This document shows, one piece after another, positions 547 to 39,195 of a stretch of DNA of 64,000 bases; position 1 is the first letter of the stretch, and each line of letters starts with the position of its first letter. The stretch comes from Azolla caroliniana. Its lineage: Eukaryota > Plantae > Polypodiophyta. The stretch spans positions 7,006,001 through 7,070,000 of the forward strand of contig JBHGNT010000002.1 in assembly GCA_043228905.1 (NCBI GenBank). The letters are read 5' to 3'. A model generated the notes under the pieces. It was not told where the DNA came from. It made no database searches and saw nothing but the letters and a program-made list of their open reading frames with translations. Made by a program: the position numbers and the translations under genes.

Positions 547-1080
547 TCAGCACCCATTCGTGCCGATCGACTCATCCTTGGCGTCCTTCGGACCCCCACT
601 GATAGGGATGTCGTCCAAGAAAGGCATGGTGATGTCCGGAATGCAGTCCCGTAGAATTCTGTTCATTGCGTTCACCATGTGTGCCACTGAGTTGGTCCCC
701 CCCTGTGGTAGGGTACACATTTGAACTAGGCCGAGAGGGGTTCGCATTGTCGTGATGTCCCTGCTTTCCACGACCAGCTGGAACTGGTCGTACCCCGAGT
801 AAAGGTCTCCGACCGAGTATATGGACCTTCCGGCGAAGGCTTCCGCGAACTCATCGATCGACGACCCAACTCCCGTAATGCGGATGGTCACCTTGTTGAC
901 CGGTTGTAAGTCCTGGATGAAGCACAACGTACCGTTCTTCTTTGGTACCGTAAACCACCGGTTAGAGTAACGGGCACTCAATGGTTCGACGATGCCCAGT
1001 TCCACCTTCTGCTTGAGAAGCTCCATCAACATTGCCATGTGAGCTCTCGGTACTTGAATTGGTTTGAGACTCCATGGCAC
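547..1080 (-). pseudogene. Reverse transcriptase fragment of element A
   Basis: YSNRWFTVPKKNG, DLYSGYDQF, LPQGGTNS and MPFLDDIP motifs. It continues in another frame to 312. Confidence 0.9.
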
Positions 1081-1656
1081 GTTGTCGCGTTGTTACGCGC
1101 GTGCGTGTAGAAGGGGCGGGACCGCGGGGGTCATGGACTAGGGAGTGGAGGAGAAAGAATAGGACATGATATGGAGGCTTAGTTCAAGAGGAGAAGAGGA
1201 AAGAATAAGACCACGACATCGAAGGAGGGATCGGCGGAGGCAAGATGCTCAACAAGCTATATTAAAACAACGAATGGTTACAACAATGGTGGCCGCCATG
1301 GCCGCACCAAAATGACTATCCGAAAACCCTAAAGGGAAACCCCAGGAGAAACCCTAACTGAAACCTACCGGTATACACTCTAATACAAAATAGGCAACCC
1401 CTTCATAAGTGACCCCTCCCTTCCTTTTATAGCCCAAGGAGGGAGGGACCTTACAATGTGGGACAAAAATTTCCCCTCTCTTTCTATACACCATATCCTA
1501 GTATACATGTGCACATGTTGCACAACACCGACTTGTCCCTTCCACCCCGGTTTCCGCCTATGGACGAAAATCTTCACGACATCCACCCCCACCAAACCGC
1601 ACATCCACGGGTATGTGCCAAGAAAGGAAAAGTGTGAGAGATTTCGTCCACGGTGA

Positions 1657-4600
1657 TCAACCGGGTCTTTCGCCTGACCGGCACCCAACCTTCTTGCCGG
1701 TCCCTTGCTGGCGCCGATCCGTCTTGCCGGCCCCGACCCGCCGACTCCATCCGATCCACCACGTCCACCGCATTTCCCCGAACCGTCGGCTCCATCCAAT
1801 CCGCCATGTCCGGCGCATGCACCTTCTTCTTCGACCGGCCATCCCGGACACCATTGCCGATCCGGTCTCCCTTCCTTCACTCACCGCGCATGTCCTCCGG
1901 TTAGACCCCCGATTACTTCGATTGCTCGTCGGGTGCCGCTCCTCGGGTATCGCGTGTGTTCCACCTCCGGCTCGACCTTCTCCTCGCCCCGAACACCTCG
2001 TACCGACTCCCTTCGTTCTGCACTCGGCTTCCGTAGGCACTTCCCGTGCGTCGTTGTCGTCCATCGAATGCGTGCTCGTTCTTCGGTCCTTACGTGACCC
2101 CATTACGCGCTCCTCGCTTCTCCCTTGCTCGTCGTGCTCTCTTGTCGTAGAGCGTACCGTCATCCCGACCACCATGTCAATGTCCTTCGCGACTCCCGTT
2201 ACTGCTTCATCCCGACTCTCGTCCTCTTGGCCCGCTTGGCCTCGCATGCCTTCGGGGAAGCCGTGCTTCCTCTTCCCGGCGCGTAGCCCGTTGCTCTCCA
2301 CGCACCTCCTCCGGTTCTCAAGACATAGCCTTCCATGCTCGCCGATCATCCTCATGCTTGTCATTCGGCCCTTACGCGGCCACATCGCACGTCTCGCACT
2401 CCGCTCCGCTCTGCGTACCCTTTCGAAAAGGTACGTTGCTTCCCCGACATCCGTGTCGGTGCTCTCGTCTTCGGTGTCCTCCGCAACCTCCGATGTTGCC
2501 GCTTCGCCCCGAGGTACACCCTCTTGGTCCGCCTGGCCTTGGATGCCCTCCGGGAAGCCGCCACGTTTTCTCTTCCCGGTGTGTACCCCGTTGTTCTCCG
2601 CGCATCCCCTCCGTTTTCCCAGACACAATCCTTCATTCACGCCGATCACGCCCGTCTCGTTTTGTTGATCTTGGCGTCTCGTTGCACCGCCCGTCGTCCC
2701 ACACTTGCCTCTTGAAGGCTTTCCCCGACCGTCATCGTCGGTCACTCGTTGCGGCTCTTCCGGGTGCATTCTTGCTTCTTGGCCCTTCGCCGACCGTAGT
2801 GCACGCTCCGTTCTACGCCGTAATGCATGGTTTGCGTTACACACTTCCCTCGTTGTAGTCCCGACCTCCGCTTCGGCCTCTTCGTATTTCGTTGCCGTAG
2901 CCCCTTTCGACTCCGGCTTGCCGTCTTGGCCGTGCCCGTCCGCCTTCACGCACCGGGTACCCGTTCCGATAGCCTCGTCCGTTCCGATCTCCGACTCCTC
3001 GCCGCCTTCCGTCGTCTCTTTGGTCTTACATCGATCCGCAACCACCGAAGTCTCAAGGATAGATGTGGAGGGCTCCTCTCGCTCTCGGTCTTCTGCCAAG
3101 CCGTAATCACCGTGCCCGGTTAGCTTTCTTCTCGCGCTCACCGGCTCCCACCGGGTGTTGTGGCCCGTTTGCCTCGACCTCCAACCGTGCCAACTTTGCC
3201 TTCGCCCGGACCGGTCTCGGCCGATCGAGTTCTGGTTAGGTCGGCTCCCTTCCGTAATTGTAACCGGCCGGCAGATGTTTGTCCGAACAAATCCGACCTT
3301 GCCAGCTCTTCTTCGGTTCGGGCCCGGTTCACCAAACCTCGCTCCAATGTTCTTCCGCGTCGTCTTCCGGTCATGTCGGATTATCGACCGGTCCATCTTC
3401 CGGTCGGGTCGGTTCCCGACTCTCTCCTCTTTGCCGCTCCCGACCTCTCCGTCGGTCCTCTCGTATATGCCCGTTCCGGGCCTCGCGTTCTCATCTTCGT
3501 ACGTGTTCGCTCCGGGCCACACCTCCTCACGGCCACCGCCCTTCTCTCCGGTCTTATGTTGGCATTCGAGCGCAACCGCCGTAGTCTCCGGTCTCGGTGT
3601 TGAGAGGTCTTGCCTCCGTCCGCTATGACCTTCCTCATCGTCATTTCGATCGTCCGCTTTGCCGCCGCCACCTTCCGTCTCTCCGGTCTCACGTGGGCTC
3701 TCGGGGCCGACTGCCGAAGTCTCTAGAATAGGTGTGGGAAAAGTCCCGATACCGTTACTCGCCGATGCCATGTTCGTAGCCACCTTCGTTCGGACGCCGT
3801 GGTCCGTGGCTATCTCTTCCTCGTTCTCTTCATCGTCGTGGTAGGCCGCCTTGCCGCCACCACTGCCCATCGCTCTAGGTCTCACGCCGCCACTCGGGCC
3901 GGCCGCCGGAGCCTCTAGGACCGGTGTGGGTAAGGACCCGGCACCGCCACTCGTTGTGTCAGTAGCCGCTTCCGTCCGGTCGTCGTTGTCCGCGGCTACC
4001 CCATCTCCGATTCCGCAAACCTCGATTACGCTTGCCACCATCTCTCCCATGCCGTCGTCTCGGTTGCCCGCCTTGCCGTCGCCACCGTCCGTCACTCTAG
4101 GTCTCACACCGGCTCTCGGGCCGGATGCCAGAGTCTCTAGGACCGGTGTGTGTAAGGTCGCGGCACCGCCGCTTGTCTGCTCCTCACTCAATGTTTCGGG
4201 CCGCCATGTCCCGAATACGTAGTTACCGGCCTCCATGGCCGTCCCTTCACCGCAAGGCAAGAGGGTCGCTTGCTCCGCACCCTCTCCTATCTCGCCGTCG
4301 TACGCTCTCCCGGCCTCCGTATAGACCCCGTCTTCTACGTCTAGGGAGGCTTCTTCCTCCGCATCCTCCAATCGCCTCCGGCCCGTCTCCATAACAAGCC
4401 CTTCTTCGGCTCCGATTTTCGCCTTCACAAGCTCGCATGCCTCTCGTATTAGCGCTTCTAGGTCGAGCTCCTCCGAACCGTTTTGCGTTGAGCTCTCTTC
4501 CGGCGGTAGTGCGTACTCACTCACCGCTCTCTCTTCTCTGTCGCTCGCGGGCCACGTCGTTGCCGACCGCTCCCCATCGGGTTGCCGGCATACCCACTCC

Positions 4601-4935
4601 GGTTTCGCGTATCCGCACGCTTCCAATAGGGCTACCTCCAAGGACACCCACGACTCGTGAGCTTCTCGTAGCTCCTTGACCCCCTTGTGCACCGATGCGG
4701 CCGCCACTCGAGGAAAATACTCTAGCCGCATCTCCTCGTCCACGCCCCCTTTCGCCATCTCGTCCTCGTACGCTTCCAAGAACCTCGGGACATCGTCCCC
4801 GTTGAATCGGCCGACTCGATCGACCACCCTTTCGACGGCTTGTTGAGCCGCATCTCGCTTCGCCATCTTCCGTCCGGCTTCCATCACGATTTTTGCCATC
4901 ATCTCCTCGAAGTCCAAGTCTTCTTCCATCTCCAT
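1657..4935 (-). CDS. 1092-aa Gag-like N-terminal domain fused to a long repetitive low-complexity tail
   Basis: Stop-free ORF starting about 15 nt after the PBS. The N-terminus (AVERVVDRVGRFNGDDVPRFLEAYEDEM...LLEACGY) aligns by eye with Gag of G (AIESIVGTIGRFGGKSATSYLEAYRAEM...LLEKYGY). Confidence 0.75.
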   Translation of the reverse strand: MEMEEDLDFEEMMAKIVMEAGRKMAKRDAAQQAVERVVDRVGRFNGDDVPRFLEAYEDEMAKGGVDEEMRLEYFPRVAAASVHKGVKELREAHESWVSLEVALLEACGYAKPEWVCRQPDGERSATTWPASDREERAVSEYALPPEESSTQNGSEELDLEALIREACELVKAKIGAEEGLVMETGRRRLEDAEEEASLDVEDGVYTEAGRAYDGEIGEGAEQATLLPCGEGTAMEAGNYVFGTWRPETLSEEQTSGGAATLHTPVLETLASGPRAGVRPRVTDGGDGKAGNRDDGMGEMVASVIEVCGIGDGVAADNDDRTEAATDTTSGGAGSLPTPVLEAPAAGPSGGVRPRAMGSGGGKAAYHDDEENEEEIATDHGVRTKVATNMASASNGIGTFPTPILETSAVGPESPRETGETEGGGGKADDRNDDEEGHSGRRQDLSTPRPETTAVALECQHKTGEKGGGREEVWPGANTYEDENARPGTGIYERTDGEVGSGKEERVGNRPDRKMDRSIIRHDRKTTRKNIGARFGEPGPNRRRAGKVGFVRTNICRPVTITEGSRPNQNSIGRDRSGRRQSWHGWRSRQTGHNTRWEPVSARRKLTGHGDYGLAEDREREEPSTSILETSVVADRCKTKETTEGGEESEIGTDEAIGTGTRCVKADGHGQDGKPESKGATATKYEEAEAEVGTTTREVCNANHALRRRTERALRSAKGQEARMHPEEPQRVTDDDGRGKPSRGKCGTTGGATRRQDQQNETGVIGVNEGLCLGKRRGCAENNGVHTGKRKRGGFPEGIQGQADQEGVPRGEAATSEVAEDTEDESTDTDVGEATYLFERVRRAERSARRAMWPRKGRMTSMRMIGEHGRLCLENRRRCVESNGLRAGKRKHGFPEGMRGQAGQEDESRDEAVTGVAKDIDMVVGMTVRSTTREHDEQGRSEERVMGSRKDRRTSTHSMDDNDAREVPTEAECRTKGVGTRCSGRGEGRAGGGTHAIPEERHPTSNRSNRGSNRRTCAVSEGRETGSAMVSGMAGRRRRCMRRTWRIGWSRRFGEMRWTWWIGWSRRVGAGKTDRRQQGTGKKVGCRSGERPG

Positions 4936-4950
4936 GCTCCCTTGCCGCCC

Positions 4951-4968
4951 TTCACGTCGGGTTCACCA
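4951..4968 (-). promoter_or_regulatory. Primer-binding site complementary to tRNA-Trp 3' end (element C)
   Basis: TGGTGAACCCGACGTGAA on the minus strand is the complement of the plant tRNA-Trp 3' end ...TTCACGTCGGGTTCACCA. Confidence 0.85.
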
Positions 4969-5471
4969 AAGATGTCGCGTTGTTACGCGCGTGCGTGTAG
5001 AAGGGGCGGGACCGCGGGGGTCTTGGACTAGGGAGTGGAGGAGAAAGAATAGGACATGATATCGAGGCTTAGTTCAAGAGGAGAAGAGGAAAGAATAAAA
5101 CCACGACATCGAAGGAGGGATTGGCGGAGGCAAGATGCTCAACAAGCTATATTAAAACAACGAATGGTTACAACAATGGTGGCCTCCATGGCCGCACCAA
5201 AATGACTATCCGAAAACCCTAAAGGGAAACCCCAGGAGAAACCCTAACCGAAACCTATCGGTATACCCTCTAATACAAAATAGGCAACCCCTTCATAAGT
5301 GACCCCTCCCTTCCTTTTATAGCCCAAGGAGGGAGGGACCTTACAATGTGGGACAAAAATTTCCCCTCTCTTTCTATACACCATATCCTAGTATACATGT
5401 GCACATGTTGCACAACACCGACTTGCCCCTTCCACCCCGGTTTCCGCCTATGGACGAAAATCTTCACGACA

Positions 5472-7275
5472 ACGTGCGGCACGGTAAAGATCACCATTGG
5501 TTTGACAATGGTTGGGTTGACGCATCCGATCTCTCCCGGCGAGAATGCGAAGGCTTTCCCGTGCCTCTCGAGCATCCTTCTGAACCAGTCCTCTTCCACC
5601 GGCAGTAGGAAGTCACCCCCACCGATCTTCAGCTCTCGTAGTGTTTTGTTGGTGAAACGGTGTCCTATGTTGGCCGGATCTCGCAAGCTCGGGTCGGTAG
5701 CGACCCCATTTATTCGTTCCCAAGTGCCCTCCAGTAAGGGCGCCGCAACGGGCTTTTCCTTTCGGTCTACCACTTTGTACTTGGTGTCTACTCGGGCGAT
5801 CCAATGCGCCCTAGTTTTTCTTTCGAAGTCCGCAATGATTTCATACATGTCGACCGGGTTGATCGGTATGACTCGATCTTCACTTAGGCCTCCCTCGACT
5901 ACCTTCCTGATTTCTCCAAGGGTATCATCGAACGAGACCGCTTCCACGGCTTCCCCAAACCCTTCGTCGTGACTCAAGGCTCCGCACGCTTTTAAGCGTA
6001 TCTCGGCCCGCTTTTTTTCTCGGCCACTGATGCTGGCAATGATACATCCCCCGTTGTCGGAGAACAAAACTTTCCTCCCTATTTTACAGAGGTGGGGAAT
6101 TTTCCGGCTATCCGGACTATCACAGCCCCACGCCTTGATAGCCCTTTCCAAAAATCCGCCTTGTCGTTATTTCCGAGGGTGTCCCTGTTCCGCTCGTGAT
6201 TCTTCCGAACGGTCAAAAATTGGACGGAATGACGACCGTTCTGACTTTTTACCCTTGCATAGGTTGAACCATTGTCCAACACTTTTGTCTCCATTCTAGC
6301 CACCGTGATGTACGGCTCGCCGAGGATGACCGGGTGGGAGGACGTCTCTTGCACAAAAAAGTGTTGGTTTATATCGACGTCTCCGACGCTCACCCGGACG
6401 TTCGGGCAAGCCCTGTGTATTTCCTCTGTGGCTCTTGTAGCTGCACGTATCTTCCACCCGTGTTTGGTGTTGATCAGCCAATTCCCTTTCTTGTAGAAGT
6501 CCATGGAGATCAGGTTAATTTCCGACCCGTAGTCGATTAATGCCACCACTGGTTCCTTCACATCCCCGATACGACCGGGGGTTTCTGTAGTCACTCTTGC
6601 CCAGTACGGCCTGGCGTAGTGGCTTTCTGCAAGCTCGTCTTCCGTAGCCATCTCGTCCAGGAGTGCCGTCTTTACTTCAACCCGCTTCTCGGGCTCTGGT
6701 TCTGTCGCGAGACGTTTTCTCTTTACGAGGTTCACAATGCTGTCGTGGAATTCCCTTCTCGCTATGCCAAGCACTTCCCTAAGCGTGAGTTCTATGTGAC
6801 TGTCGAGAACTCGCTCCTCTAGAACCTTTTGCAGGTTCGTTGTTTTCTCGATTTCCGAGCTTAAACGGAAGCTCGGAATCCTGCCCTTCTCCTTCTCCTG
6901 GGACCCGGTCGGAGTGGCATCGTGCCCTTTCGGCGTGCTTCCGGTGTCATACCTCCCCAAAGGGCCCGCTCCCCCGATTTTCCCCGCTCGCCTTTCGTCG
7001 ATCAGGGCCTCGTAGTTCTTGCACACGGCTTCCACAAAGCCGATGCTCTCCTCAACGGGGTCACTCCAGTCGGTAACTTCGCGCACACGCTCCTCCACGC
7101 GCTCCGTTTCTCCCTTCTGCAACCTTCCTCCGGACAAGGTCTCGAGAATAACCGGCCAGAACCCAGGGTTTGAATTGGGTTTGGCTACCTTTTCGCCTAC
7201 ACGGATGCCGGCCGAAGCCGAGTAGTTGATGGCTTCGACGTGCCGTGCCGCAACTTCTTCCATTAGCCTCTTCAT
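5472..7275 (-). pseudogene. Element A Gag C-terminus and aspartic protease (6079-7275), then the pol N-terminal region in the -1 frame (5472-6151)
   Basis: D-x-G protease motif ALIDYGSEINL. The two ORFs overlap at GGATTTT (6157-6151). Confidence 0.8.
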
Positions 7276-8301
7276 GCCACCTCATCCGAAATTTGCGTCA
7301 AGCAATCTTCGCATGTCACTCACATGTATCCTACCATTCAAGAGATAGACTACATTACTTCTAAGCGCTTCATTGAGGTTAGCTCAATCTCTCTAGGAAT
7401 GTCTGGTGGCGTCGCACCATATGCACCTATGATTGGCCGACGGTCGTCAGTCGCGCGGCTGACCCTCGTCACTTCGCCGGGCCTGGGCGATCTAGAGGTC
7501 GCGCACCATGCTTGTCAGTTCTTCTAGTCCTGCGCCACCTGCAGGTCCCGCGACTACGTTTGCCGGGGGTGGGCCTTGCTCGAGCCACCTCCTCGTTTCT
7601 TCCATTCGGGTCGGTGTCAGCTCCGCTCTGGTTTCGATGGCCGGTCCGGCCGGCAAGGACCCCCTTTCTTTCCAATCTCGGCATTTGTCAATCCTACCGC
7701 ATACTTCTTTGACGGTCCCCCAGTCAATCGTGAGACCGCAGTTGGTTTCAAGAAGAAGACCCACGCTTTCTTGAACGCGCGAGTCGAACGATGTGACGAA
7801 AAATAGGACTTTGCTTGTTTCGAGCACGGCTCGGTCCAATCTTGAGAGCCGTGCGAATCGTGACTCGAACTCCTGGAGGAGCGCCGAAGTGTTCTAACCC
7901 TTGTCGGGGCTATTGACCCAATCCATAAAGTCCGTTCTCGATAGCTGGAACGAGTCATCGTAGCCGTACCTTTCGAGAACTTCTTCCGCGAATTCCGCCC
8001 AATCGCGGCAGCCTAGTTGTATTTCGGCCATTTCCGTATGGATGTGTGGTGTCATGACCTGGGGAAACCCTGTCAGCCATCTATCCTCGGGTATATTCCT
8101 CATCTACATCTCGGATTTGGAGGCCTCTAAGTAACTCGTGGCGTCTTTTCCACTAAACCGGCCTATCTTGTCGACTGTTGCTTCTATGGCCCTGTCGAGG
8201 GCACTCACACCCTTGCGAGCGCTAACCAGGCGGTCTACTGCCACCGCCATTGCTTCTGCAAGTTCGCTCCCTCTCATTTTCAGTTTCCTTTGCCGCCCTT
8301 T

Positions 8302-8319
8302 TTCACGTCGGGTTCACCA
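8302..8319 (-). promoter_or_regulatory. tRNA-Trp primer-binding site (element A)
   Basis: Perfect 18-mer TGGTGAACCCGACGTGAA, 5 nt from the LTR end. Confidence 0.85.
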
Positions 8320-12229: not shown

Positions 12230-15200
12230 CCGGTTCAACGCATTCTTCCTCATCAGGGAGGTCCGGTTCAACGCATTCTTCCTCTCGTAGAGGCCCGACA
12301 GCTTCCGCCACATCTCATATGCGTTGGTGTCGTTCGCCACATGTTGTAGAACGCTCACGTCGACGTATTGCCGAATGGTTGCAACGGCTTTCCGGTTCAG
12401 AAGCCTCCATTCCGACTCAAGTACCCCCTTCGGTATTTCCGACCTGTCAATCGGTTCGTACAGGTCCCGAACAATCAGAAGATCCTCCATCTTGATCTTC
12501 CAGTCGGCGTAATTCTGCGCATTCAGCACCATCATCCCCGGCTGCCCGCTGCCGCCGCCTTCCATTTTCTGCAGCAGTCGCTCTGATACCAGTTTGTAGA
12601 GAAATCGACGCTCCAATTAATCTTCACCGCTCGGCCACAACCGAGTAAGCACGAATCAATGCAGCAGAAAATAGGAACCACAGAGAAAGAACACGAATAC
12701 ACAGTGATTAACGTGGAAAACCCTAGACGGGAAAAACCACGGGAGTACAAGACTCCAAACCAAAACTATGCACAGAGAAATATACAATGGCGAGCTGCAA
12801 GGCGACGACCTTGAGCTCGCATTCCTCGCCACAGGCGGCGGTATTACACAGAGGCTTCGACCTCCTCGTCTCTCACACTCTATCTCTCTCACGGCTGCGC
12901 TCTCTTCACTTCTCTTGAGTGGAAAAACAGAAAAATGAGTAGCAACCACAGAACTGTTTGCCCTAAGTCATATTTATACACATATGACTTTGGGGCTATT
13001 TACAACTATAGCCTCAAGGGCCCTTGGCAAACATATTTACAGATATGTCCCCGCATCCGGATCTCGCTCCGAGTACATTCGTCATCCGGCTCCGAAGCCG
13101 GGGTCTTCATCATCCGGTTCCGAAACCGAAACCGGGCTTGTCGGCATTCATCTCCGATATCCGACCATCCCATCCGAAAGGGACCGTAATCCCAACAAAC
13201 TCCCCCTTCACTTCGGCATGGGATGTCTTTCCAATCCGATCCTCTTCCGGCATGCTTCGAGCTTGTCGGGTGTGAGCACCTTGGTCAGCATATCCGACCC
13301 GTTCTCGTCCGTGTGGACCTTCGTCAGCACGAACTCCTTGTCTTCTATCCTTTCCCGGATCCAGTGATATCTTCGCTGGATGTGCTTCGTCCGGGAGTGA
13401 TAGGCCGCGTTCTTCGCAAGGTGGATTGCACTCTGACTGTCGCAGTAGAGTCGGTACTCCTCCTGTCGGATACCGAGCTCTCTAATGAAGTCCTTCATCC
13501 ATATTATTTCCTTGCCGGCTTCAACAGCCGCCATGTACTCCGCCTCCGTGGTTGACAACGCAACCGTCTTCTGCAGCCTCGACTGCCATGAAACAGCTCC
13601 CCCTGCATACGTCATCACATACCCTGATGTGGACCGGTTGGTATCTGCATCAGCCGACATATCCGAATCGGTGAAGCCGTCGAGTTCGGGCTACCGGAGC
13701 CGAATCGGAGGCACACGTTTGCCGTGCCCTTCAGGTATCGGAGTATCCACTTGACCGCGTTCCAGTGCTCTTTGCCGGGATTGCTCATGTACCGGCTCAC
13801 CACTCCGACTGCATATCCTATGTCCGGTCGGGTACACACCATTGCGTACATCAAGCTCCCGACGGCAGAGGCATATGGTACTTTCATCATGTCCTCCTTC
13901 TCAGTCTTTGTCTTGGGGTTTGCTTGCTGGACAGCTTGCAGTTTGCCGGGAGTGTTGACCCGACCGGTCATGCTTCCGACATGTTGAACCGGTGAAGCAC
14001 CTTTGTCACGTACTTCTCCTGTGACAGCCACAACTGCTTCTTCTTCCGGTCCCGGATGATGTGCATCCCCAGTATTTGCCTCGCCGGACCCAGGTCCTTC
14101 ATTGAGAAGGTTCGGTGAAGAGCCTTCTTCAGCATCCGTATCTTGATTTGGTCCCGTCCGACGATCAACATGTCGTCCACGTATAGGAGGAGTATTAGAA
14201 AGTCTCCTCCTTCGAACTTCTTCACAAACACGCAGTGGTCGGACTGCGTTTTGAGGTACCCTTCGTCGGTCATGAAGGAGTCGAACTTCCGGTACCATTG
14301 TTGGGGAGCCTGTTTCAGTCCGTAAAGGCTCTTCTTCAACCGGCATACCAGGTGCTCCTTCCCTTTCTTCTCGAATCCTTCCGGTTGCTGCATGTAGATC
14401 TCTTCTTCGAGGTCACCGTGAAGGAATGCCGTCTTCACGTCCATCTGTTCTACCTCGAGGTCCATGCTTGCCGCTATGCTCAGCACCGTCCGGATGGAGG
14501 TCATCTTCACTACCGGGCAAATATCTCGTCGAAGTCGACGCCCTTCTTCTGCTGAAACCCCTTCACCACGATCCTGGCTTTGTATCTCGGGGGGTTTCCG
14601 GCATCTCCCGGTTTCAGCTTGAACACCCACTTGTTTCGAAGTGCCCGCTTTCCTTTCGGCAACTCCACAAGTTCATATGTGTGGTTCTCATGCAGGGAAT
14701 CCATCTCGTCCTGCATGGCACTCAACCACCTGCGGCTCTGGGTGTCATGCTTTGCTTCTTCAAAGCTCTCCGGCTCCCCCTCGTCGGTTAGTAGCACGTG
14801 CTCTGGTTCCGGAAATCTCCGGGGGGCCCTTCTCTCTCTCAGAGGATATCTCCGTTCCGGAGCTTCGGTAACCGGTTCTTCCGATTCTTCTTCATCCGAA
14901 TCCATTTCGGGATCGGGGCCGGTTCCGGTATCGTTTTCATCTTCTTCGGACGGTTCTGTTTCTTCACCGTCTTCGGCCGGATCCTCGAGTGCTAACCGGT
15001 CCCTTGCCGGTCGGGACTGCTCCTCGTAGAGTTGATCCTCACCGGTCGACTTGGAGCTCTTCATCTTCTTCTCCGACTCCCAGTCGGCGAGTGTCTTGTT
15101 CTCCATGAAGATGATATCACGACTCCGGAATATCTTCTTGTCAACCGGGTCCCATACTCGGTAGCCGAACTCGTCATCGCCGTAACCGAGGAATATGCAT

Positions 15201-17910
15201 GGCCGGGTCTTTGGATCTAGCTTTCCTCTCCGGTCCTTTGCCACATGCACGTATGCGAGACACCCGAACACCTTCAGATGCCGGTAGGATACTTCCCTAC
15301 CGGTCCACACTCTCTGCGGTGTGTCTCCGTCCAAAGGTACTGAGGGTGATCTGTTTATCACGTATGTCGCCGTCGACATCGCCTCAACCCAAAACCCCTT
15401 GGGTAATTCCGCATGCGCCAGCATACTCCGGACCCTCTCCATTATGGTCCGATTCATCCTCTCGGCCAGCCCGTTCAGTTCCGGCGTCTTCGGCATAGTA
15501 AACTCGAGCCGGATTCCCTTCGAGCGACAGTACTCCGCGAACTGCCCCCGGTATTCCCCTCCGTTATCCGCTCGTATCGCTTTCAGCTTCTTGCCGGATT
15601 CCCTTTCCACTCTCGCGTGGAGTTCTTTGAAGACGCACAACACTTGGTCCTTTGTCTTCAACGGTGCCATCCACAGCTTCCGGCTGTGATCATCAATGAA
15701 GGTTACGAAGTACTGGGCTCCGCCATGTGATTTCGTTTCTACCTGACACACATCAGTGTGTACCAACTCCAATGGTACACTACGTCTCGTCGGTGGCCTT
15801 GAGTGGAAGGAGGCTCGGTTCTGCTTACCGGCCAGGCAATCGGTGCACTTCTCCAGGTGCACGTGCTTCACTGGAATAAGGTTGTCTTCTGCAAGCCTCT
15901 TCATCCCCTTCTCACTCATGTGGCACAGTCTTTTGTGCCACAGCTCACCGGCAGTGTCGGCTGCCACATTCAGCTCTTCCGGACATAACCGGGCATTCAT
16001 CAGGTACAGTGTGTTGACTTTCCGGGCCCGAGCCACTATCAGGCTCCCCTTGCTGAGCTTCATTACGCCGTTCCGGATGCTACCTGTGTAGCCTTCGTCG
16101 TCTAGCCTTCCGGACGAAATTAGGTTCAATCGAACCTCCGAAACGTGTCGGACATCCTTCAGCAGCATTTTGCATCCGGTCGGGGTTGTCAACCACACGT
16201 CTCCTATGCCGGCAATCCGGCACGTACCTTCGTTTCCCATCCGAACACAGCCATGCTCACCGGCTGTGTAGGATGAGAAGTATCTTCTTTCCGGGGTCAG
16301 GTGGAACGATGCTCCGGAATCAACCACCCAGGTCGTCTCATCGCCGGCAATGTTTAGTTCACCTTCTTCGGTGATGAGCATGATCTCCTCTTCACTTGCC
16401 GCGAGTGCCGTCGTTCCTTTCCGGTCCTGCCCTCGCCGATCCGGACCTCTCCGGTCCGTGGCTCCCCGGTATGCACCGTTTCTCTCCGGTGACTTCTTCG
16501 AATCGGTGTCGTCGGCTCCGTTGTCCTTTCGGTAATGCCGACAATTCTTTCGGAAATGCCCCGGCTTCCCACAGTGGAAGCAAGTGGGCCTTCCTCTTGA
16601 CTGCGACCGGGTCCCCGACTTCTCTCGTCTTTGCGGACTCCGGTTCCATTGTCTTCCCCGATCCGATTCGGTAAACAACATCTTCGGATCGGAGGCCGGT
16701 TCTTTATCTCTCCGACGCGCTTCTTCGTTCAAAATACTTGTCTTTACCGTTTGTAGGGACAAGTTATCTTCGGTGCAGGAGGTGTTGAGAGTCACCACCA
16801 AGTTCTCCCAGCTTTCCGGCAATGTACACATCAGGATGATGGCTTGCATTGCATCCTCCAACGGGAACTTGATCGCCGCAAGCTGGTTCACGAATCCCAT
16901 GAACGTGCTTACGTGTTCCACCATACTCTCGCCGTCCCGGTACTTGAGGTTCACTATCTTCCTCATCAGGGAGGTTCGGTTCAACGCATTCTTCCTCTCG
17001 TAGAGGCCCGACAGCTTCCGCCACATCTCATATGCGTTGGTGTCGTTCGCCACATGTTGTAGAACGCTCACGTCGACGTATTGCCGAATGGTTGCAACGG
17101 CTTTCCGGTTCAGAAGCCTCCATTCCGACTCAAGTACCCCCTTCGGTATTTCCGACCTGTCAATCGGTTCGTACAGGTCCCGAACAATCAGAAGATCCTC
17201 CATCTTGATCTTCCAGTCGGCGTAATTCTGCGCATTCAGCACCATCATCCCCGGCTGCCCGCTGCCGCCGCCTTCCATTTTCTGCAGCAGTCGCTCTGAT
17301 ACCAGTTTGTAGAGAAATCAACGCTCCAATTAATCTTCACCGCTCGGCCACAACCGAGTAAGCACGAATCAATGCAGCAGAAAATAGGAACCACAGAGAA
17401 AGAACACGAATACACAGTGATTAACGTGGAAAACCCTAGACGGGAAAAACCACGGGAGTACAAGACTCCAAACCAAAACTATGCACAGAGAAATATACAA
17501 TGGCGAGCTGCAAGGCGACGACCTTGAGCTCGCATTCCTCGCCACAGGCGGCTGTATTACACAGAGGCTTCGACCTCCTCGTCTCTCACACTCTATCTCT
17601 CTCACGGCTGCGCTCTCTTCACTTCTCTTGAGTGGAAAAACAGAAAAATGAGTAGCAACCACAGAACTGTTTGCCCTAAGTCATATTTATACACATATGA
17701 CTTTGGGGCTATTTACAACTATAGCCTCAAGGGCCCTTGGCAAACATATTTACAGATATGTCCCCGCATCCGGATCTCGCTCCGGGTACATTCGTCATCC
17801 GGCTCCGAAGCCGGGGTCTTCATCATCCGGTTCCGAAACCGAAACCGGGCTTGTCGGCATTCATCTCCGATATCCGACCATCCCATCCGAAAGGGACCGT
17901 AATCCCAACA
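12230..17910 (-). mobile_element. Element D: very young Ty1/copia (Tnt1/Tork-like), complete unit 12595-17910 plus a tandem truncated second unit 12230-12594
   Basis: 603-bp LTRs at 12595-13197 and 17308-17910 (3 substitutions by eye). iMet PBS at 17293-17304 and again at 12580-12591. PPT AGTGAAGGGGGAG near 13200-13212. Confidence 0.95.
13208..17278 (-). CDS. Copia Gag-Pol polyprotein of D (gag, CCHC knuckle, protease, integrase, RT, RNase H) with about 4 frameshifts in RT/RH
   Basis: 922-aa ORF 14510-17278 with CFHCGKPGHFRKNC, WVVDSGAS and HTDVC..DNGGEY. YVDD in 13968-14630, RNase H in 13208-13660. Confidence 0.9.
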
Positions 17911-31500: not shown

Positions 31501-33932
31501 TTTCTCGAGTGAAACGCAACTGGATGTGTCTGCCCGTCCTCGCCTTGTTGTGATAGGATACTCCCCAATGCAAAGTCTGATGCATCCGCCTCAATAGTAA
31601 ATGGCTTTTCAGGATCAATATGTGCTAGGATGGGTGCTGATGTGAATGCCTCTTTCAGCTGCGTAAAAGCCTTGTCCGCTTCGATACTCCAAAAAAATGC
31701 TTGATTTTTCTTGGTGAGTTGAGTAAGGGGCAACACAATGCTTGAATAATTATGTATGAATTTGCGATAGAAGTTCGCAAATCCGAGGAAACACTGGACA
31801 TCCCGAACTGAGCATGGGGGTTTCCATTCCAATATTGTTTGGACTTTTGCCGGGTCCATGAAAACACCCTGGGATGAAATAGTGTATCCCAAAAATTGGA
31901 CTTGTTTGCAATCAAAACTGCATTTCTCAAGTTTGGCATAAAGACCATACTTCCTTAGGCGTTCAAGTACTTGCCGCACATGTATATCATGCTCCCCCTG
32001 TGTTTTAGAGTAAATCAATAGATCATCTAGGTAGATGATTAGAAAAACATCCAAGAAATCCCGGAAGATGTCATTTGCCATATGTTGGAATACTGCAAGT
32101 GCATTTGTGAGCCTGAAAGGCATGACTGTATACTCGAAATGACCATACCGAGTACGAAATGTTGTTTTCCACTCATCTCCCGGCCGAATTCGAACAAGAT
32201 TATATGCACCCCTTAGATCAATTTTGGTAAAATGCTTTGCCCCACCAATGCGTTCTAAGAGATTGGAGATTAAAGGTAAAGCATACCTATTCCTTATGGT
32301 GACTTTATTTAAGCCTCAATAGTCCACGACCAAACGAAGGGAATCGTCCTTTTTCTTCACAAAAAAGATAGGAGCACCAGCTGGAGACTTTAAATGTCGA
32401 ATAAACCCATGTGCAAGATTTTCCTCGATGTATTCTCGAAGAATCTCAAGCTCAGTGGGTGATAAATTGTAAATCGGACCCCACGGTGGCTCTTTTCCTG
32501 GTTGGAGATCAATAGGACAGTCGTACGGCCGATGCTTTGGAAGAACACTAGCTTTGACTTTGTCGAAAACATCAGCATAGTCTTGATATTTTTTGGGAAT
32601 TTGGATGTCTGAATTCCCTTGAGTGACACTAGAAGGTGTCATTGATACTGCAAATAAGAAAAGGTCATCCTTGCCTCCCACTTGGTGCAATTGTTGCAAT
32701 GTGATGGCTGAAATTTGATGAGAAGGATATGGTGCATCGGTAGAACTATATACTTTAGGAGGATAATCCCGAGTTCGATCCTTGACAATGATATTTTCTA
32801 TTAAAGGGCACCTAATTTCTCGCTTCCTCCAATCAATTCTAGGGTTGTGTAGCTCGAACCATGGCAAACCGAGGACAATTGGATGCTCAGGACTACGGAT
32901 TATGTTAAAGGAAACTACACATCCTAAATCACCCAAGAGTATGTGTATTGGCTCAGACTCTTCAAATATCTTCCCGGAAGCTATGGGGCGTCCATCAATC
33001 ACTACTATGAAAACTGGACAAGGAAGTGTATGCAAGGATATTTGGTGTTTTTGGGCAAAATCTCTATCCATGAAACAAGAATTGGCTCCAGTATCTAAGA
33101 GGGCTTGGACTTGAAGTTGACAACTGGGTGTCCTAACTTGTACTAGGGCTCAGAAGACTCTACTAACATGCTTGGAAGAAATGGAACCCACACTAGGTTG
33201 TACATATCTAGGGTTGTCCAACCAAATGGCTCCTATTTTGGCCGGACTTATTTGTTTGACTCCTCTTCTAATTGGCTTAGGACTTCAAATTTATTGGACA
33301 AGGGTGGATTATTCATAATACTAGATTCACTAACTACTTCTAAAATGTTGGACTCATTTTTATTGTCATAGTGAATTTGATTTACCTAACATCTCGACCT
33401 ATGGGAGCAATGAATGGCTATATGTCCTGGACCTCCGCAATATAAGCACAGATGGTTTGCTCGATGACGTTGCTTCTCTTCGTCTGACAACAGTCCTCGT
33501 CGTTGAGTCATATCGATCTCCATGGGTTCAGGACTATCCATTGGGACTGGACTACGTGTTTGCCTTGGAGTTGGACCAGGGCTATACATTTGCCTTGGGG
33601 ATGATTGCACCGTTACTGATGCATAAGCTGGTGTGAATCTTGATCTTGTTATTTGTTGTTGTTGTCGGGAACTCAACGCTCCCTATACGCAATGCTCGGC
33701 CACAACCGAGCTTAGGATCATACACAGAAAACGGGAAATAAAACACGACAAGAAGAAGAGGGAGATACACAGGAGGTTTACGTGGAAAACCCCAAACTAG
33801 GGGAAAAACCATGGCAGCCCACAGGCTGCAAACTGTCACTATGTAAGAATATACAACTGTGAGTTCACTGAGGCACCGACCTCATGCTCACAGATCTTCG
33901 CCACAAGCGGCGGTTACAACAGAGGCAACGAC

Positions 33933-33969
<37 letters not shown>

Positions 33970-34389
33970 CAGTTACACACACTCACTCTTTTCTTGCACC
34001 AACAAGAAATGAACAACTACTACACCACTTATTTGCCCTAAGTCATATTTATACTAATATGACTTTTTGGCTATTTACAAATATAGCCTCGATGGGCTCT
34101 CAGAAACATATTTACGAATATGTCTCTTCCTCCGGTTCTCACCGGGTCTGTGTCATCTGGCTCTCCGTAGCCGGGTGCTCCTCATCCGGTTCTTCACCGG
34201 GTCTGTATCATCCGGCTCTCCGTAGCTGGGTACTCCTCATCCGGTTCATACCAGGTCTGCACCATCCGGCTCTCCGTAGCCGGGTACTCCTCATTCGGTT
34301 TCGGCCTCGGCCGAGTTTGTTCATTGGCATTGTTCTTCTCCCTTCCCATCCAGAGGGACTTGTCTCCCAACAAACTCCCCCTTCACTCC

Positions 34390-37300
34390 GGCATGGGGTG
34401 TCTTACCAGTCCAATTCTCTTCCGGCATGCATCCAGCTTGTCGGGTATCAGCACTTTGGTCAGCATATCTGACCCGTTCTCGGCCGTGTGGATCTTCATC
34501 AGCGCGAACTCCTGGTCATCTACTCTTTCCCGGATCTAGTGACACCTCCGCTGGATATGCTTCGTCCGGGAATGGTAGGCTGCATTCTTAGCAAGGTGGA
34601 TGGCACTTTGACTGTCGCAATAGAGTCGGTATTCATCTTGCCGGATACCGAGCTCTCCGATGAAGTCCTTCATCCATAATATTTCCTTGCCGGCTTCCAT
34701 AGCCGCCATGTACTCCGCCTCTGTGGTTGACAATGCAACCGTCTTCTGCAGCCTCGACTGCCATGAAACGGCTCCCCCTGCATATGTCATTACATACCCG
34801 GATGTAAACCGGCTGGTATCCACATCAGTCGACATGTCCGAATCGGTGAAACCGTCAAGTTGAGGTTTTCCGGAGCCGAATCGGAGACACATATTTGAAG
34901 TTCCCTTCAAATACCGGAGTATACATTTGACCGCGTTCCAGTGCTCCTTGCCGGGGTTGCTCATAAACCGGCTCACCACTCCGACTGTGTATCCAATGTC
35001 CGGTTGGGTACAAACCATTGCGTACATCAAGCTCCCGACGGCAGAGGCATATGGTATCTTCATCATATCCGCCTTCTCTGCTTTCGTCTTCAGGCTTTGC
35101 TTACCGGATAGCTTGCAGTTTGCCAGAAGTGTCGATCCGACCGGTTTCGCATCTGACATGTTGAACCGGTGAAGCACCTTTGTCACGTACTTCTCCTGTG
35201 ACAGCCATAATTGCTTCTTTGACCGGTCCCGAATGATGTGCATCCCCAGCATCTGTCTTGCCGGACCCAAGTCTTTCATTGAGAAGGTCCGGTTGAGAGC
35301 CTTCTTCAGCATCCGTATTTTTACTTGGTCTCGTCCGACGATGAACATGTCATCCACGTACAGGAGGAGTATCAAGAAGTCGCCTCCTTCGAACTTCTTC
35401 ACAAACACGCAGTGATCGGCCTGCGTCTTGTGGTACCCTTGATCGGTCATGAAGGAATCGAACTTCTGGTACCATTGTCGGGGAGCCTGCTTTAGTCCGT
35501 ACAGGCTCTTCTTCAGCCGGCATACCAGGTGCTCCTTCCCTTTCTCCACAAATCCTTCCGGTTGCTGCATGTAGATCTCCTCTTCGAGGTCGCCATGAAG
35601 GAATGTCGTCTTCACGTCCAGCTGCTCTACCTCAAGGTCCATGCTTGCCGCTATACTCAGCACCGTCCGGATGGAGGTCATCTTTACTACCGGGGAAAAT
35701 ATCTCGTCGAAGTCCACGCCCTTCTTCTGCTGGAACCCCTTCACCACAATCCTGGCTTTGTATCTCGGGGGGTTTCCGGCATCTCCCGGTTTCAACTTGT
35801 ACACCCACTTGTTTCGGAGTGCCCGCTTTCCTTTCGGCAACTCCACCAATTCGTACGTATGGTTCTCATGCAGGGAATCCATCTCGTCCTGCATAGCACT
35901 TAACCATTTTCGGTTGTGGGTGTCATCCTTCGCTTCTTTGAAGCTTTCCGGCTCCCCCTCATCGGTTAGCAAAACATGCTCTGCATCCGGAAATCTCCGG
36001 GGGGCCCTTCTCTCTCTGAGAGGATATCTCCGTCTTTGGGCTTCGGTAGCCGGCTCCTCCATTTGCTCTTCATCCGAATCCGATTCGGGGTCTAGGCCGG
36101 TTCCGGTCTCAGCTTCCTCTACTTCTTCTTCTGCCGGTTCGGTATCCTCACCGTACCCGGCTGGTTCTTCGAGTGCTAACCGGTCTCTCGCCAGTTGGGT
36201 CTGCTCATCGTAGAGTCGATCCTTGCCGGTCGACTCGGAGTTCATTATCTTCTTCTCCGACTCCCAGTCGGCGAGCGTCTTGTCCTCCATGAAGATAATA
36301 TCTCGACTCCGGAATACCTTCTTGTCGACCGGGTCCCACACTCGGTAGCTGAACTCCTCGTCACCGTAACCGAGGAATATGCATGGCCGGGTTTTTGCAT
36401 CTAACTTTCCTCTCCAATCCTTTGCTACATGCACGTACGCGAGACACCCGAACACCTTCAGATGCCGGTAGGAGACTTCCTTACCGGTCCATACTCTCTG
36501 TGGCGTGTCTCCATCCAAGGGTACTAAGGGTGATCTATTTATCACATATGTCGTCGTCGACAGTGCCTCAGCCCAAAACTTCTTGGGTAGTTTTGCATGC
36601 GCTAGCATACTCCGGACCCTCTCCATTATGGTCCGGTTCATCCTCTCGGCCAGTCCATTTAGTTCCGGCGTCTTCGGCACGGTAAATTCGAGCCGTATTC
36701 CCTTTGAGCGGCAGTACTCCTCGAACTGCCCCGGTACTCTCCTCCGTTATCTGCTCAGACCGCCTTCAACTTCCGGCCGGTTTCTCTTTCCACTCTCACG
36801 TGGAGCTCTTTGAAGACGGATAACACCTGATCCTTCGTCTTCAACGGTGTGGCCCACAGTTTCCGACTGTGGTCATCTATGAACGTCACGAAGTACTGCG
36901 CTCCGGCATGTGACTTCGTGTCTACTTCACACACATCCGTATGCACCAACTCCAGTGGTGCATTACGTCTCATCGGTGGCCTTGGTCGGAAGGAGGTCCA
37001 GTTCTGGTTACCGGCCAGACAATCAGTGCACTTCTCTAAGTGCATGTTCTTCACTGGAATGAGGTTGTCGTCTGCAAGCCTCTTCATCCCCTTCTCGCTC
37101 ATATGACACGGCCTCTTGTGCCACAGCTCACCGGCAGTGTCGGATGCCACGTTCACTTCTTCCGGGCATAACCGGGCATTCATCAGGTACAATGTGTTTA
37201 CCTTCCGGGCCCGAGCCACAATCAGGCTCCCTTTGCTGAACTTCATGACACCGTTCCGGATGCTACCCGTGTAGCCCTCATCATCTAGCGGACCGGCTGA

Positions 37301-38428
37301 TATCAAGTTCAGTCGAACCTCCGGAACGTGTCGGACATCCCTTAGCAGCAACTTGCATCCGGTTGGTGTTGTCAGCCACACGTCTCCTATGCCGACAATT
37401 CGGCATGTACCTTCATTCCCCATCCGGACACAACCGTGATCACCGGCTGAGTAGGATGAGAAGCATTTCCGGTCCGGGGTAAGGTGGAACGACGCTCCGG
37501 AGTTTACCACCCAGGTCATCTCGTCGCCGGCAAGGTTTATCTCACTCTCCTCGGTGATGAGCATCAACTCTTCTTCACTTGCCGCGATTGCCGTCGTCCC
37601 CTTCCGGTCCGGCCCCCTCCGGTCTTTACCGTTCCGGTCCGGGGTCCGCTTCGAATCGGTACCATCGGTCTCCTTATCTTTTCGGAAATGCCGACAGTTC
37701 TTTTGGAAGTGTCCCGGCTTGCCGCAATAGAAGCAAGTAGGCCTCCCCCTTGACTTTGACCGTGTCCCCGACTTCTCCCGGTTCTGGGCACTACGGTTTC
37801 TATGTCTTCTGCGTTCCGATTCGGTAAGGAGCGCTTTGGAGTCGGAGCTCGTATCCTTATCTTTCTGACGCACCTCCTCATCCAGCAAGCTCGATTTCAC
37901 TCTTGCTAGGGATAACCGTTTTCCTTCCGGCCCGGTGTTGCCCAAAGTGACGACCAACGTCTCCCAACTATCCGGGAGGGAACCGAGCAGGAGTAGTGCT
38001 AGTACCTCGTCGGCGAGAGGTACTTCCAATGATGTTGCCTGGTGTATCAGCCCCTAGAAGGCATTCATGTGCTCCGCCATGTTGGAGCCATCTTGGTACC
38101 GGAGTCTTACTAGCTTCCGGAATACCGAAACCTGATTAACAACATTTTTGTTCTGAAACATTATGTCGATCTTCTCCCAGAGCTCATGAGCCTTGCTCTC
38201 TTCATTGAAGTTGTTGTACAGGCTCATGTCGATGAAGCACCGTATGTACGCCGTTGTCTTCATGTGCATCACCTCCCATATCGTGGCGTCCATTTTGTCT
38301 GGTCTCTTGTCCCCGAACTGAACCAGCAGCCAGAGATCTTTAACCACGAGCATGTCCCTCATCTTCGACTTCCACACTGAATAGTTGGAGCCGGTGAGCT
38401 TGAACATGCCGCCAAACGATTCGTCCAT
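34390..38428 (-). pseudogene. Copia Gag-Pol of K with premature stops and a frameshift
   Basis: CFYCGKPGHFQKNC, HTDVC, YVDD and TKHIQRR motifs. Stops at 38054 and 34536, frame change near 36740. Confidence 0.9.
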
Positions 38429-38920
38429 TTTTTGTGTCGATTTTGCTCTGATACCACTTGTTGGGAACTCAACACTCCCTATACGCAATGCTCGGCCACA
38501 ACCGAGCTTAGGATCATACACAAAAAACAGGAAATAAAACACGACAAGAAGAAGAGGGAGATACACAGGAGGTTTACGTGGAAAACCCCAAACTAGGGGA
38601 AAAACCACGGGAACCCACAGGCTGCAAACTGTCACTATGTAAGAATATACAACCGTGAGTTCACTGAGGCACCGACCTTGTGCTCACAGATCTTCGCCAT
38701 AGGCGGCGGTTACAACAGAGGCAACGACCTCTTTCTCTCTCTCTCTCTCTCTCTCTGTACAGTTACACACACACTCTCTTTTCTTGCACCAACAAGAAAT
38801 GAACAACTACTACACCACATATTTTCCCTAAGTCATATTTATACTAATATGACTTTTCGGCTATTTACAAATATAGCCTCAGTGGGCTCTCAGAAACATA
38901 TTTACGAATATGTCTCTTCC

Positions 38921-39195
38921 TCCGATTCTCACCGGGTCTGCGTCATCCGGCTCTCCGTAGCCGGGTGCTCCTCATCCAGTTCTTCACCGAGTCTGTATCA
39001 TCCGGCTCTCCGTAGCTGGGTACTCCTCATCCGGTTCACACCGGGTCTGCACCATCCGGCTCTCCGTAGCCGGGTACTCCTCATCCGGTTCACACCGGGT
39101 CTGCATCATCCGGCTCTCCGTAACCGGGTACTCCTCATCCGGTTCACACCGGGCCTGCACCATCCGGCTCTCCGTAGCCGGGTACTCCTCATCCG
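38921..39195. repeat. 54-bp tandem repeat in the K LTR (about 5 units here, about 3 units at 34131-34297)
   Basis: Unit CCGGTTCACACCGGGTCTGCACCATCCGGCTCTCCGTAGCCGGGTACTCCTCAT. Confidence 0.88.

Follow-up and report, generated by a model that had tools for sequence, protein, structure and literature searches.

Selection on the reading frame, not on the tail residues, of a Pol-less Phygy-type LTR retrotransposon family in Azolla caroliniana

Substitution and indel patterns show that transposing lineages of an enzyme-less LTR retrotransposon family in Azolla caroliniana purge stops and frameshifts from the body of a long protein tail, while the residues of that tail show no constraint. The copy studied here lies in a 64,000-nucleotide stretch (the window; contig JBHGNT010000002.1, positions 7,006,001 to 7,070,000). 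The original interpretation is supported in part: the element is Pol-less and resembles TR-GAG, and the depletion of lineage-shared stops and frameshifts shows that selection holds its frame open.

Architecture, family and helper

As had been proposed, the element is structurally complete, with paired 499-bp LTRs, a tRNA-Trp primer site, a polypurine tract (PPT) and an ACGT duplication. Its features are as follows (coordinates within the window).

1079..1082, no strand: 3' target-site duplication ACGT, NCGN type
1083..1581, minus: 3' LTR of 499 bp, with 98.2% identity between it and the 5' LTR
1582..1593, minus: polypurine tract, G-rich, adjoining the 3' LTR; that of the helper is similar
1657..4935, minus: sole ORF, 1092 aa, starting 17 nt past the primer site and ending 78 nt short of the 3' LTR
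1747..1836, minus: R/W-rich basic core of the tip, aa 1034-1063
1990..4611, minus: tail body (aa 109-982), acidic, rich in G/A and poor in T, predicted to be unstructured
2200..2649, minus: two LCL..RR.C.E.NG units, in phase, aa 763-813 and 863-912, 74% DNA identity
3016..4176, minus: TP(V/I)LE..GP..GGGKA units, three full and two degenerate, all in phase
4585..4611, minus: junction at which the capsid C-terminal domain, 83 aa that full-capsid sisters keep, was lost in frame
4612..4935, minus: helix at the N terminus and capsid N-terminal domain (aa 1-108), with homology to helper Gag
4952..4968, minus: primer-binding site that pairs with tRNA-Trp(CCA); the helper has the identical site
4973..5471, minus: 5' LTR, 499 bp
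5472..5475, no strand: 5' target-site duplication ACGT
5476..8319, minus: older autonomous-type relative with Gag-PR, the start of Pol and its own Trp primer site at 8303

The element is 4389 bp long, with TG..CA LTR termini and a 4-bp duplication, and was inserted into pol of the older relative, whose RT resumes at 1078 and below. Its primer site is complementary to the 3' terminus of tRNA-Trp(CCA) as encoded in the genome (4/4 loci scanned). Protease and Pol are absent, and no Pfam family was matched by the window protein or by full-length sisters. An antisense frame of 388 codons (1502-2668) probably results from the purine richness of the sense strand.

The element is a member of a large Ty3/Gypsy family of Phygy type that is non-autonomous and has been amplified to hundreds of copies. 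Exact 4-bp target duplications flank 53 of the 74 copies with parsed TG..CA ends, 52 of the 53 being NCGN, and 71 copies have duplications within one mismatch. Full-capsid sisters measure about 5.7 kb, and a second family, with another capsid head, has an interior of 1.75 to 2.06 kb. Enzyme-less dependents occupy 10 of 40 Trp-primer sites sampled, about a quarter. The helper has its primer site, PPT and NCGN targeting in common with the family and encodes a full GAG-PROT-RT-RH-INT polyprotein, which the element lacks; no chromodomain was found in it. Homologues of helper Gag are named from Physcomitrium and Riccia, the Physcomitrium protein at 29%. The window protein has eight database homologues, which may come from the same host, as the one searched back matched the A. 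caroliniana genome at up to 99%; a metagenome scan gave four loci of the same kind.

According to the available text of the Phygy clade survey (Neumann et al. 2019, PMC6317226), these elements show an NCGN 4-bp duplication in 100% and a tRNA-Trp primer in 81%, average 8.6 kb, carry a full polyprotein and are defined as a clade by RT/RH/IN trees. The likeness found here lies in NCGN duplication, tRNA-Trp primer and a helper without chromodomain. No Pol-less Phygy derivative was found in the text available from that survey; the element is placed here as a dependent of Phygy type and not as an autonomous member of the clade. It shares with TR-GAG (PMC4350172, available text) the non-autonomous LTR design with PBS, PPT, TSD and one ORF starting with Gag, without Pol. 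However, TR-GAG1 as described there has a 433-aa Gag that carries a zinc knuckle and lacks internal duplications, and TR-GAG elements stay below 4 kb, whereas the element is 4.4 kb, has half a capsid, no knuckle and an ORF that is about 90% non-Gag and duplicated, and conserves its frame rather than its residues.

A frame kept open over drifting residues

The 3.3-kb ORF (4935..1657, minus strand) is uninterrupted over all 1092 codons, as first reported. The remaining two sense frames contain 35 and 34 stops across the ORF region, and Markov simulations (2000 each of order 1 and order 2) gave 34 and 23 stops per frame, with longest open runs of ≤ 457 and ≤ 531 codons. Because the simulated runs and the stop-ridden other frames fall far short of it, the ORF is not a composition artefact. 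A stop at codon 1087 is found in 35/63 sibling copies, and the final six residues here are a local extension.

The autonomous relatives are full of stops, as had been remarked, but their contrast with the element is largely one of age. The autonomous relative at 54659-62000 has LTRs 91.9% identical, and both ORFs are open in six of seven young autonomous copies (LTRs ≥ 99.5% identical). The chance of an intact copy at the element's age is about 0.16, which is not rare.

Selection is seen when changes private to one copy are compared with shared ones in 55 copies that were not chosen for open frames. In the tail body, 28 of 896 private changes create stops, against 1 of 581 changes common to at least five copies; for changes in at least three copies the odds ratio against private ones is 0.22 (P = 0.0002), and with C>T and G>A changes removed the counts are 13/552 and 1/364 (P = 0.012). 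Body stops present in several copies are mostly recurrent, arising to TGA at CpG-type codons in copies only 78 to 88% alike. Indels behave likewise: 18 of 19 common to at least three copies are in frame, against 48 of 102 private ones (P = 8e-5). Two open lineages differ at 419 of 1833 aligned bases, over which about 13 stops would be expected. Stops and frameshifts at the level of lineages occur only after the R/W core, in codons 1065-1101. All 22 intact copies stop 0 to 197 nt before the 3' LTR, and 28/28 parsed copies of the second family likewise close their frame no more than 200 nt from the 3' LTR. ORF lengths nevertheless range from 572 to 1489 aa across the family, through large in-frame gains and losses.

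The residues tell a different story. Tail dN/dS was 1.13, 0.93 and 0.94 (approximate intervals 0.75 to 1.36) at dS of 0.24 to 0.27, while the same code gave 0.06 to 0.27 for Gag, protease and Pol of the helper. With separate rates for C/T and A/G, tail values were 1.0 to 1.22, and charge, hydrophobic and same-class changes were alike; an apparent excess of hydrophobic changes disappeared with the same correction. Inserted copies decay neutrally, judging from their sequences, and most are broken: 4 of 57 unselected copies are intact, about 12 being expected under a rough neutral model. Other copies with frequent stops and dN/dS near 1 had been named beforehand as the mark of a GC-content artefact. 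Both features are present, the stops in most copies; yet the frame is no such artefact, and lineage-shared stops and frameshifts are purged.

The tail contains six internal duplications, all of them in phase. Three TP(V/I)LE units are full (aa 263, 337 and 401), and the earlier count of about five holds only if degenerate ones at 446 and 624 are included; the two LCL units and the R/W-rich C-terminal end are present as described. The hydrophobic fraction of the tail is 0.18, close to that of the other two frames (0.18 and 0.15). In contrast to the other frames, the coding frame combines an acidic body with a basic tip in 5/5 lineages examined: D/E makes up 14 to 28% of the body (4 to 18% in other frames), and K/R 23 to 32% of the last 130 codons (12 to 23%; five lineages, including the A-rich second family). 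No DNA likeness of the tail to the helper was found except for a 27-nt stretch before the PPT, and the RNA fold before the PPT is nothing unusual (z -0.6 to -1.2).

The capsid head

Gag likeness is confined to aa ~5-105, at 37.6% identity to helper Gag, so the first estimate of about 110 aa holds. Also as predicted, the window protein has no CCHC knuckle, which helper Gag possesses. The Gag-derived part is exactly the capsid N-terminal domain (108 of 1092 aa), the capsid C-terminal domain and zinc knuckle being gone. Sister subfamilies carry the same tail on a whole capsid, or on the C-terminal domain only. The head is under moderate protein-level constraint (dN/dS ~0.35 to 0.6), with ~0.4 for the capsid N-domain in five pooled pairs that are not fully independent; in the unselected shared/private test the value was 0.53 and not significant (P = 0.08).

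The helper capsid was modelled with a pLDDT of 92. Its top Foldseek rows are capsids, none at E ≤ 0.001. Pairwise comparisons, all below the mark of about 13 under which helical models call for caution, gave Z 10.2 with the dArc1 capsid (rmsd 8.5, 157 aligned), Z 9.2 with the Arc N-lobe (rmsd 1.8, 68 aligned, residues 36-106) and Z 8.5 with the MOAP1 C-domain (rmsd 3.4, 100 aligned, residues 108-212). Of this putative two-lobed capsid the window protein retains the first lobe only. A PDB sequence search with a four-sequence profile gave a best E of 1.2, and an ESM Atlas search with aa 10-200 gave a best score of 0.87, with retrotransposon-Gag clusters at 0.85 as a lead only. Single-sequence AlphaFold of the whole protein placed 951/1101 residues below pLDDT 50 and was informative only for helices within the initial ~200 aa and for three short helices further on.

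Structure prediction weakly suggests that the capsid piece contacts the helper capsid. For aa 1-112 the score was 0.35 (best control 0.00). The contact mark was passed by 51/78 solved pairs and 2/108 mismatched pairs, but at ≤ 0.60 stand only 5/78 solved pairs together with all four passing mismatches. Across runs 89% of contacts agree, and partner pLDDT was ≥ 83.

A proposed need for translation in cis, and competing readings

The best explanation, to which we give about an even chance on these substitution patterns, is that an RNA propagates only when it is translated in cis over its whole length and that the tail is filler. Helper Gag-Pol would provide the enzymes. The capsid piece of the nascent chain, tethered by the ribosome to its own RNA, would dock into helper shells and thereby favour packaging of that RNA, and ribosome transit to the 3' end would spare an enzyme-less RNA from resembling a prematurely terminated message. 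In-frame duplications through template switching may have lengthened the tail, whose low complexity would follow from G/A-rich, T-poor RNA. Simple nonsense-mediated decay is a weak driver, because Gag-PR ends ~3.5 kb before the 3' end of the helper RNA and because long 3' UTRs failed to predict decay in Physcomitrella, according to the available text of PMC6009662. Against the cis reading, two sister copies, 94.6% alike and at different target sites, have two stops in common, so there may have been at least one transposition of a broken RNA.

Defective RNAs of mouse hepatitis virus are reported to need translation but not its product (van der Most et al. 1995, as summarized in the available text of PMC4395149). 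They resemble the element as helper-dependent genomes with ORF translation in cis and a product that may be irrelevant. That case, however, is an experimental one in an RNA virus, whereas here the requirement would be read from substitution patterns, in an integrated retrotransposon with a constrained capsid head. The evolutionary signal of such a requirement is present here, in that the frame is conserved and the encoded sequence is not.

The data show selection on the frame and not its cause, and disruptions confined to the far end, together with an acidic body and basic tip, fit equally well a protein in three parts: the capsid piece, a sequence-free spacer and a basic R/W tip that would replace the lost nucleocapsid and bind its own RNA, the frame being open only to reach the tip. 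We regard this tether as a possible but distinctly less probable account. The missing zinc knuckle, the constrained capsid piece and the K/R-rich last 130 codons agree with it, as do a tip motif present in 81/87 two-LTR copies and lineage-level disruptions found only downstream of aa 1063. Ty1 Gag likewise has a disordered, prion-like segment of partly exchangeable sequence (PMC10372613, available text), but that segment is short, N-terminal and needed for particle assembly in an autonomous element, whereas the tail here is C-terminal, E/G/R/T-rich, 400 to 1200 aa long, far beyond a tether's need, and without detectable residue constraint. Against the tether, dN/dS within the tip is 0.83 to 1.8 and neither charge nor Trp is retained, Trp codons swapping freely with Arg (kept 8/13, 7/15 and 3/7). 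In two young full-capsid copies the tip is read in a different frame. Its composition is also close to that of body-type sequence shifted by one base, and an old frameshift could account for this without selection. That the tail instead works as a disordered protein, with stabilising selection acting on its bulk properties or with a mixture of purifying and positive selection (in an arms race against helper or host) averaging to dN/dS 1, seems unlikely. The frame-specific acidity of the body persists and a few tail comparisons fall below 1 (dN/dS 0.69, P = 0.01; 0.75; 0.80, P = 0.06; one segment 0.47, P = 0.03), but no substitution class stands out (P 0.09 to 0.26), shared and private replacements have equal mean BLOSUM scores (P = 0.19 and 0.12), and in-frame losses of up to 99 codons are common to many copies.

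That the open frame was left over from a recent coding ancestor, or arises from base composition, and is under no current selection is highly improbable. It would agree with dN/dS of ~1, with the broken state of most inserted copies and with intact copies of this age not being rare; however, same-composition simulations never exceeded 531 open codons, and lineages ~25% diverged are all still open with shared stops and frameshifts depleted. A dominant-negative capsid fragment that restrains the helper on behalf of the host, as first suggested by analogy with Ty1 p22, has hardly any likelihood. Both are capsid fragments that could join helper particles, and one sister subfamily retains only the capsid C-terminal domain, the part contained in p22 (PMC4599808, available text). 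But p22 is Gag's C-terminal half, whereas the window copy keeps the N-terminal domain and has lost the other; in addition, the family depends on working helper particles and intact young helpers are common. Since inserted copies lose the ORF neutrally, selection acts during transposition and not on host loci.

The route of LTR-retrotransposon RNA from translation to packaging, and the preference of Gag for its own RNA, are described as open questions in the available text of PMC4974528. Searches of the openly available literature found no description of a Pol-less LTR family with frame-only constraint. The purging of stops across 3 kb of sequence whose residues are neutral offers a way to measure cis-preference in plants, and a family that thrives with either capsid half makes the value of translation separable from the value of the protein. 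It also provides a long ORF kept by selection at dN/dS 1, which standard tests would call junk and ORF length alone would call a gene. Finally, it extends Phygy-type biology to enzyme-less dependents.

The element, its reading frame and its relatives

The Pol-less LTR element interrupts the pol of an older relative near Pol residue 238 and has the following features (positions in the window).

1083-5471, minus strand: whole element, with two 499-bp LTRs (98.2% identical), TG..CA ends and an ACGT duplication
4952-4968, minus strand: primer site
4935..1657, minus strand: stop-free ORF of 1092 codons
1582, minus strand: G-rich tract

The primer site is complementary to the 3' ends of tRNA-Trp(CCA) genes in the same genome (63 pattern matches; all four scanned loci were tRNA-Trp). 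The remaining sense frames contain 35 and 34 stops over the span of the ORF, and simulated sequence of the same di- and trinucleotide make-up was open for at most 531 codons, which disposes of a composition artefact, the reading to which the refuting outcome named in the original prediction would have pointed. The lack of a zinc knuckle and the R/W-rich end noticed in the 1092-aa protein were both borne out. The TP(V/I)LE and LCL repeats are also present, the "about five" TP(V/I)LE copies being precisely three full and two degenerate units. At window 3016-4176 and its equivalents in eight other copies, the third positions of repeat-unit Thr (ACA, 95%) and Glu (GAG, 100%) codons are as fixed as the first and second; this comparison of 19 dereplicated units, chosen by peptide pattern and of common ancestry, hints at a nucleotide-level motif.

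The 523-Mb land-plant assembly searched contains 331 occurrences of a 32-base start motif (≤ 2 mismatches), at least 150 matches to the N-terminal protein and 5527 exact Trp primer sites. Nine of 40 sampled sites (drawn from the 44 that come first on one contig; four were omitted, three of these being known family copies) belong to the element's tail family and one to a second, related family, so that extrapolation suggests a copy number of roughly over a thousand.

Intact autonomous elements, the presumed helpers, share the identical primer site and a similar PPT. Their Gag-protease (708 aa) contains a CCHC knuckle, and their Pol (1167 aa) is encoded in a different frame; both ORFs were open in six of the seven sampled with LTRs ≥ 99.5% identical. 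The overlap of the two ORFs lies at a T-run (L044:6400-6480), a candidate ribosomal frameshift site. Among 74 parsed copies of the family, 52 of 53 exact duplications were NCGN. NCGN targets of 4 bp (100%) and tRNA-Trp priming (81%) mark the Phygy clade in the accessible part of PMC6317226; judged by these marks, the element is probably a Phygy-type dependent and not an autonomous member. Compared with TR-GAG elements as described in the accessible text of PMC4350172, it works alike, but it exceeds the length criterion and has only half a capsid.

Elsewhere in the window, a third Trp primer site (44398) accompanies a decayed Gag that belongs to the same lineage but is more distant (42390-44414, minus). 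A young Copia element (12244-17910, minus; 954-bp LTRs 99.6% identical, 935-aa open frame) has an 85% identical relative at 33662-39270, and host exons of a RAM2-like glycerol-3-phosphate acyltransferase (GPAT; HAD and acyltransferase domains) lie amid nested elements at 50822-53003 (plus). In other parts of the genome, clusters and tandem arrays of tRNA-Trp-like 3' ends (G000:C8:17796786-17823371, C16:4989495-5105657 and C5:10105608-10112201; periods ~0.9 and 1.2 kb) may be either tRNA genes that were amplified or repeats derived from tRNA.

The capsid piece

A model of helper Gag residues 1-221 (47 sequences, pLDDT 92) has two helical lobes and in structure most closely resembles Arc/retroelement capsids: the Arc N-lobe matches residues 36-106 (Z 9.2, rmsd 1.8, 68 aligned) and the MOAP1 C-domain residues 108-212 (Z 8.5, rmsd 3.4, 100 aligned). 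Foldseek returned no row at E ≤ 0.001 for this model. Of these lobes the window protein retains the first, the second having been deleted in frame. Copies with the N-domain only (102), a full capsid (18) or the C-domain only (20) all have this kind of tail (140 classed of 148 loci); these proportions mirror the queries used, not the genome. N-only copies have two junction types (73/102 and 19/102; the remaining 10 are ambiguous), and one copy of the second family shows a separate C-domain loss.

The complex predicted between aa 1-112 and the helper capsid scored 0.35 (best control 0.00), with 89% contact agreement and partner pLDDT ≥ 83. In the benchmark, 51 of the 78 solved pairs reached the mark, as did 2 of the 108 mismatched ones, yet scores ≤ 0.60 included only five of the 78 solved pairs and all four passing mismatches, so the prediction weakly suggests that this piece may contact helper capsid. 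Its dN/dS was 0.35-0.73 in single pairs and ~0.4 pooled over five pairs (not fully independent), and an unselected shared/private test gave 0.53 (not significant); these comparisons point to moderate constraint on the N-domain.

Two full-capsid subfamilies were also seen. L173-L192 are young (LTRs 99.4-100%), with ORFs of 1133-1489 aa, several of which enter the 3' LTR, and the frame of the last codons varies. An older one (L216, L224, L228, L233 and L235) differs at its N-terminus and has a helical linker of greater length ahead of the same tail. The second Pol-less family (L250 and L253-L282, for example G000:C1:6704699-6709599) is very young; its capsid head shares 67% identity with another helper lineage, and its tail is A-rich and K/R-rich, with short motifs in common with the element's tail. 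In all 28 parsed copies (30 loci) the open frame (572-677 aa) ends no more than 5 nt from the LTR. Tandem copies at G000:C16:15405169-15418443 (L260-L263), three of which repeat with a period of 2790 bases, suggest shared-LTR arrays.

Decay of inserted copies and selection in transposing lineages

Among N-only copies not picked for open frames, four of 57 were intact, where a rough neutral model predicts ~12. Inserted ORFs thus decay, and there is therefore no host locus under preservation. Full-capsid copies were intact in 11 of 12 cases with LTRs ≥ 99.3% and in neither of two older ones; none of seven C-only copies was intact. An open copy at the age of the window element is unremarkable (about 0.16).

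Selection was read from changes common to several copies, which arose in transposing lineages, using 55 unselected copies. In the tail body (aa 109-982), stops made up 28 of 896 private changes but only one of 581 changes common to ≥ 5 copies, whereas the replacement-to-silent ratio was unchanged between shared and private changes (0.95, p = 0.68). Indels were in frame in 18 of 19 cases common to ≥ 3 copies versus 48 of 102 private; the one shared indel that is not in frame marks an alternative 3' module, and in intact copies this module is open. Most body stops found in several copies are TGA changes that recurred in copies distant from each other. The sister copies L113 and L140 (94.6% alike, different target sites) have stops at codons 76 and 520 in common, and may represent a broken RNA mobilised in trans.

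Pairwise codon fits of natural open ORFs gave tail dN/dS of 1.13, 0.93 and 0.94 at dS 0.24-0.27; helper Gag, protease and Pol gave 0.06-0.27 at greater depth (dS 0.9-3.1). Some pairs gave lower tail values (0.69, p = 0.01; 0.75; 0.80). Fits with separate C/T and A/G rates put tail dN/dS at 1.0-1.22, and no replacement class in the tail then departed from the rest. The proposed check of stops and dN/dS across copies thus had a divided outcome: tail dN/dS is ~1 and most inserted copies are broken, but shared stops and frameshifts are depleted. The accessible literature searched yielded no description of a Pol-less LTR family in which only the frame is constrained.

A proposed requirement for end-to-end translation

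The ORF stops 0-197 nt before the 3' LTR in 22 of 22 intact copies (927-1489 aa). Lineage-level stops and frameshifts in the window's subfamily fall only in codons 1065-1101, downstream of the R/W core (1034-1063). The main rival to the reading that we prefer is a tether in which the basic tip replaces nucleocapsid. Most two-LTR copies (81 of 87) carry the tip motif, and five lineages, read in frame, have an acidic body and a basic tip, the reverse of other frames; tip residues, Trp included, show no conservation, and the hydrophobic fraction of the tail is that of other frames. We consider this tether possible but doubtful. Bulk-property or mixed selection on the tail fits more poorly and is improbable. 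A neutral relic, set beside the depletion of shared stops, is very improbable. Slightly less credible still is the dominant-negative restriction factor originally proposed, since the anatomy of the window protein is unlike that of Ty1 p22 as described in the accessible part of PMC4599808.

Nonsense-mediated decay alone is a weak candidate for the driver, because helper Gag-protease ends ~3.5 kb before its 3' end and because long 3' UTRs did not predict decay in Physcomitrella (accessible part of PMC6009662), a moss, which the host here may not be. We infer that the selection against stops has to operate in cis, because protein could be provided in trans by hundreds of copies. A precedent for a translation requirement comes from the defective RNA of mouse hepatitis virus: in the accessible part of PMC4395149, translation is needed and the product may be irrelevant. 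The preferred reading, to which we assign about an even chance, is that the RNA would have to be translated through to its end, so that the capsid piece on the nascent chain could anchor its own RNA to helper particles, and that the tail would be filler enlarged by in-phase duplication.
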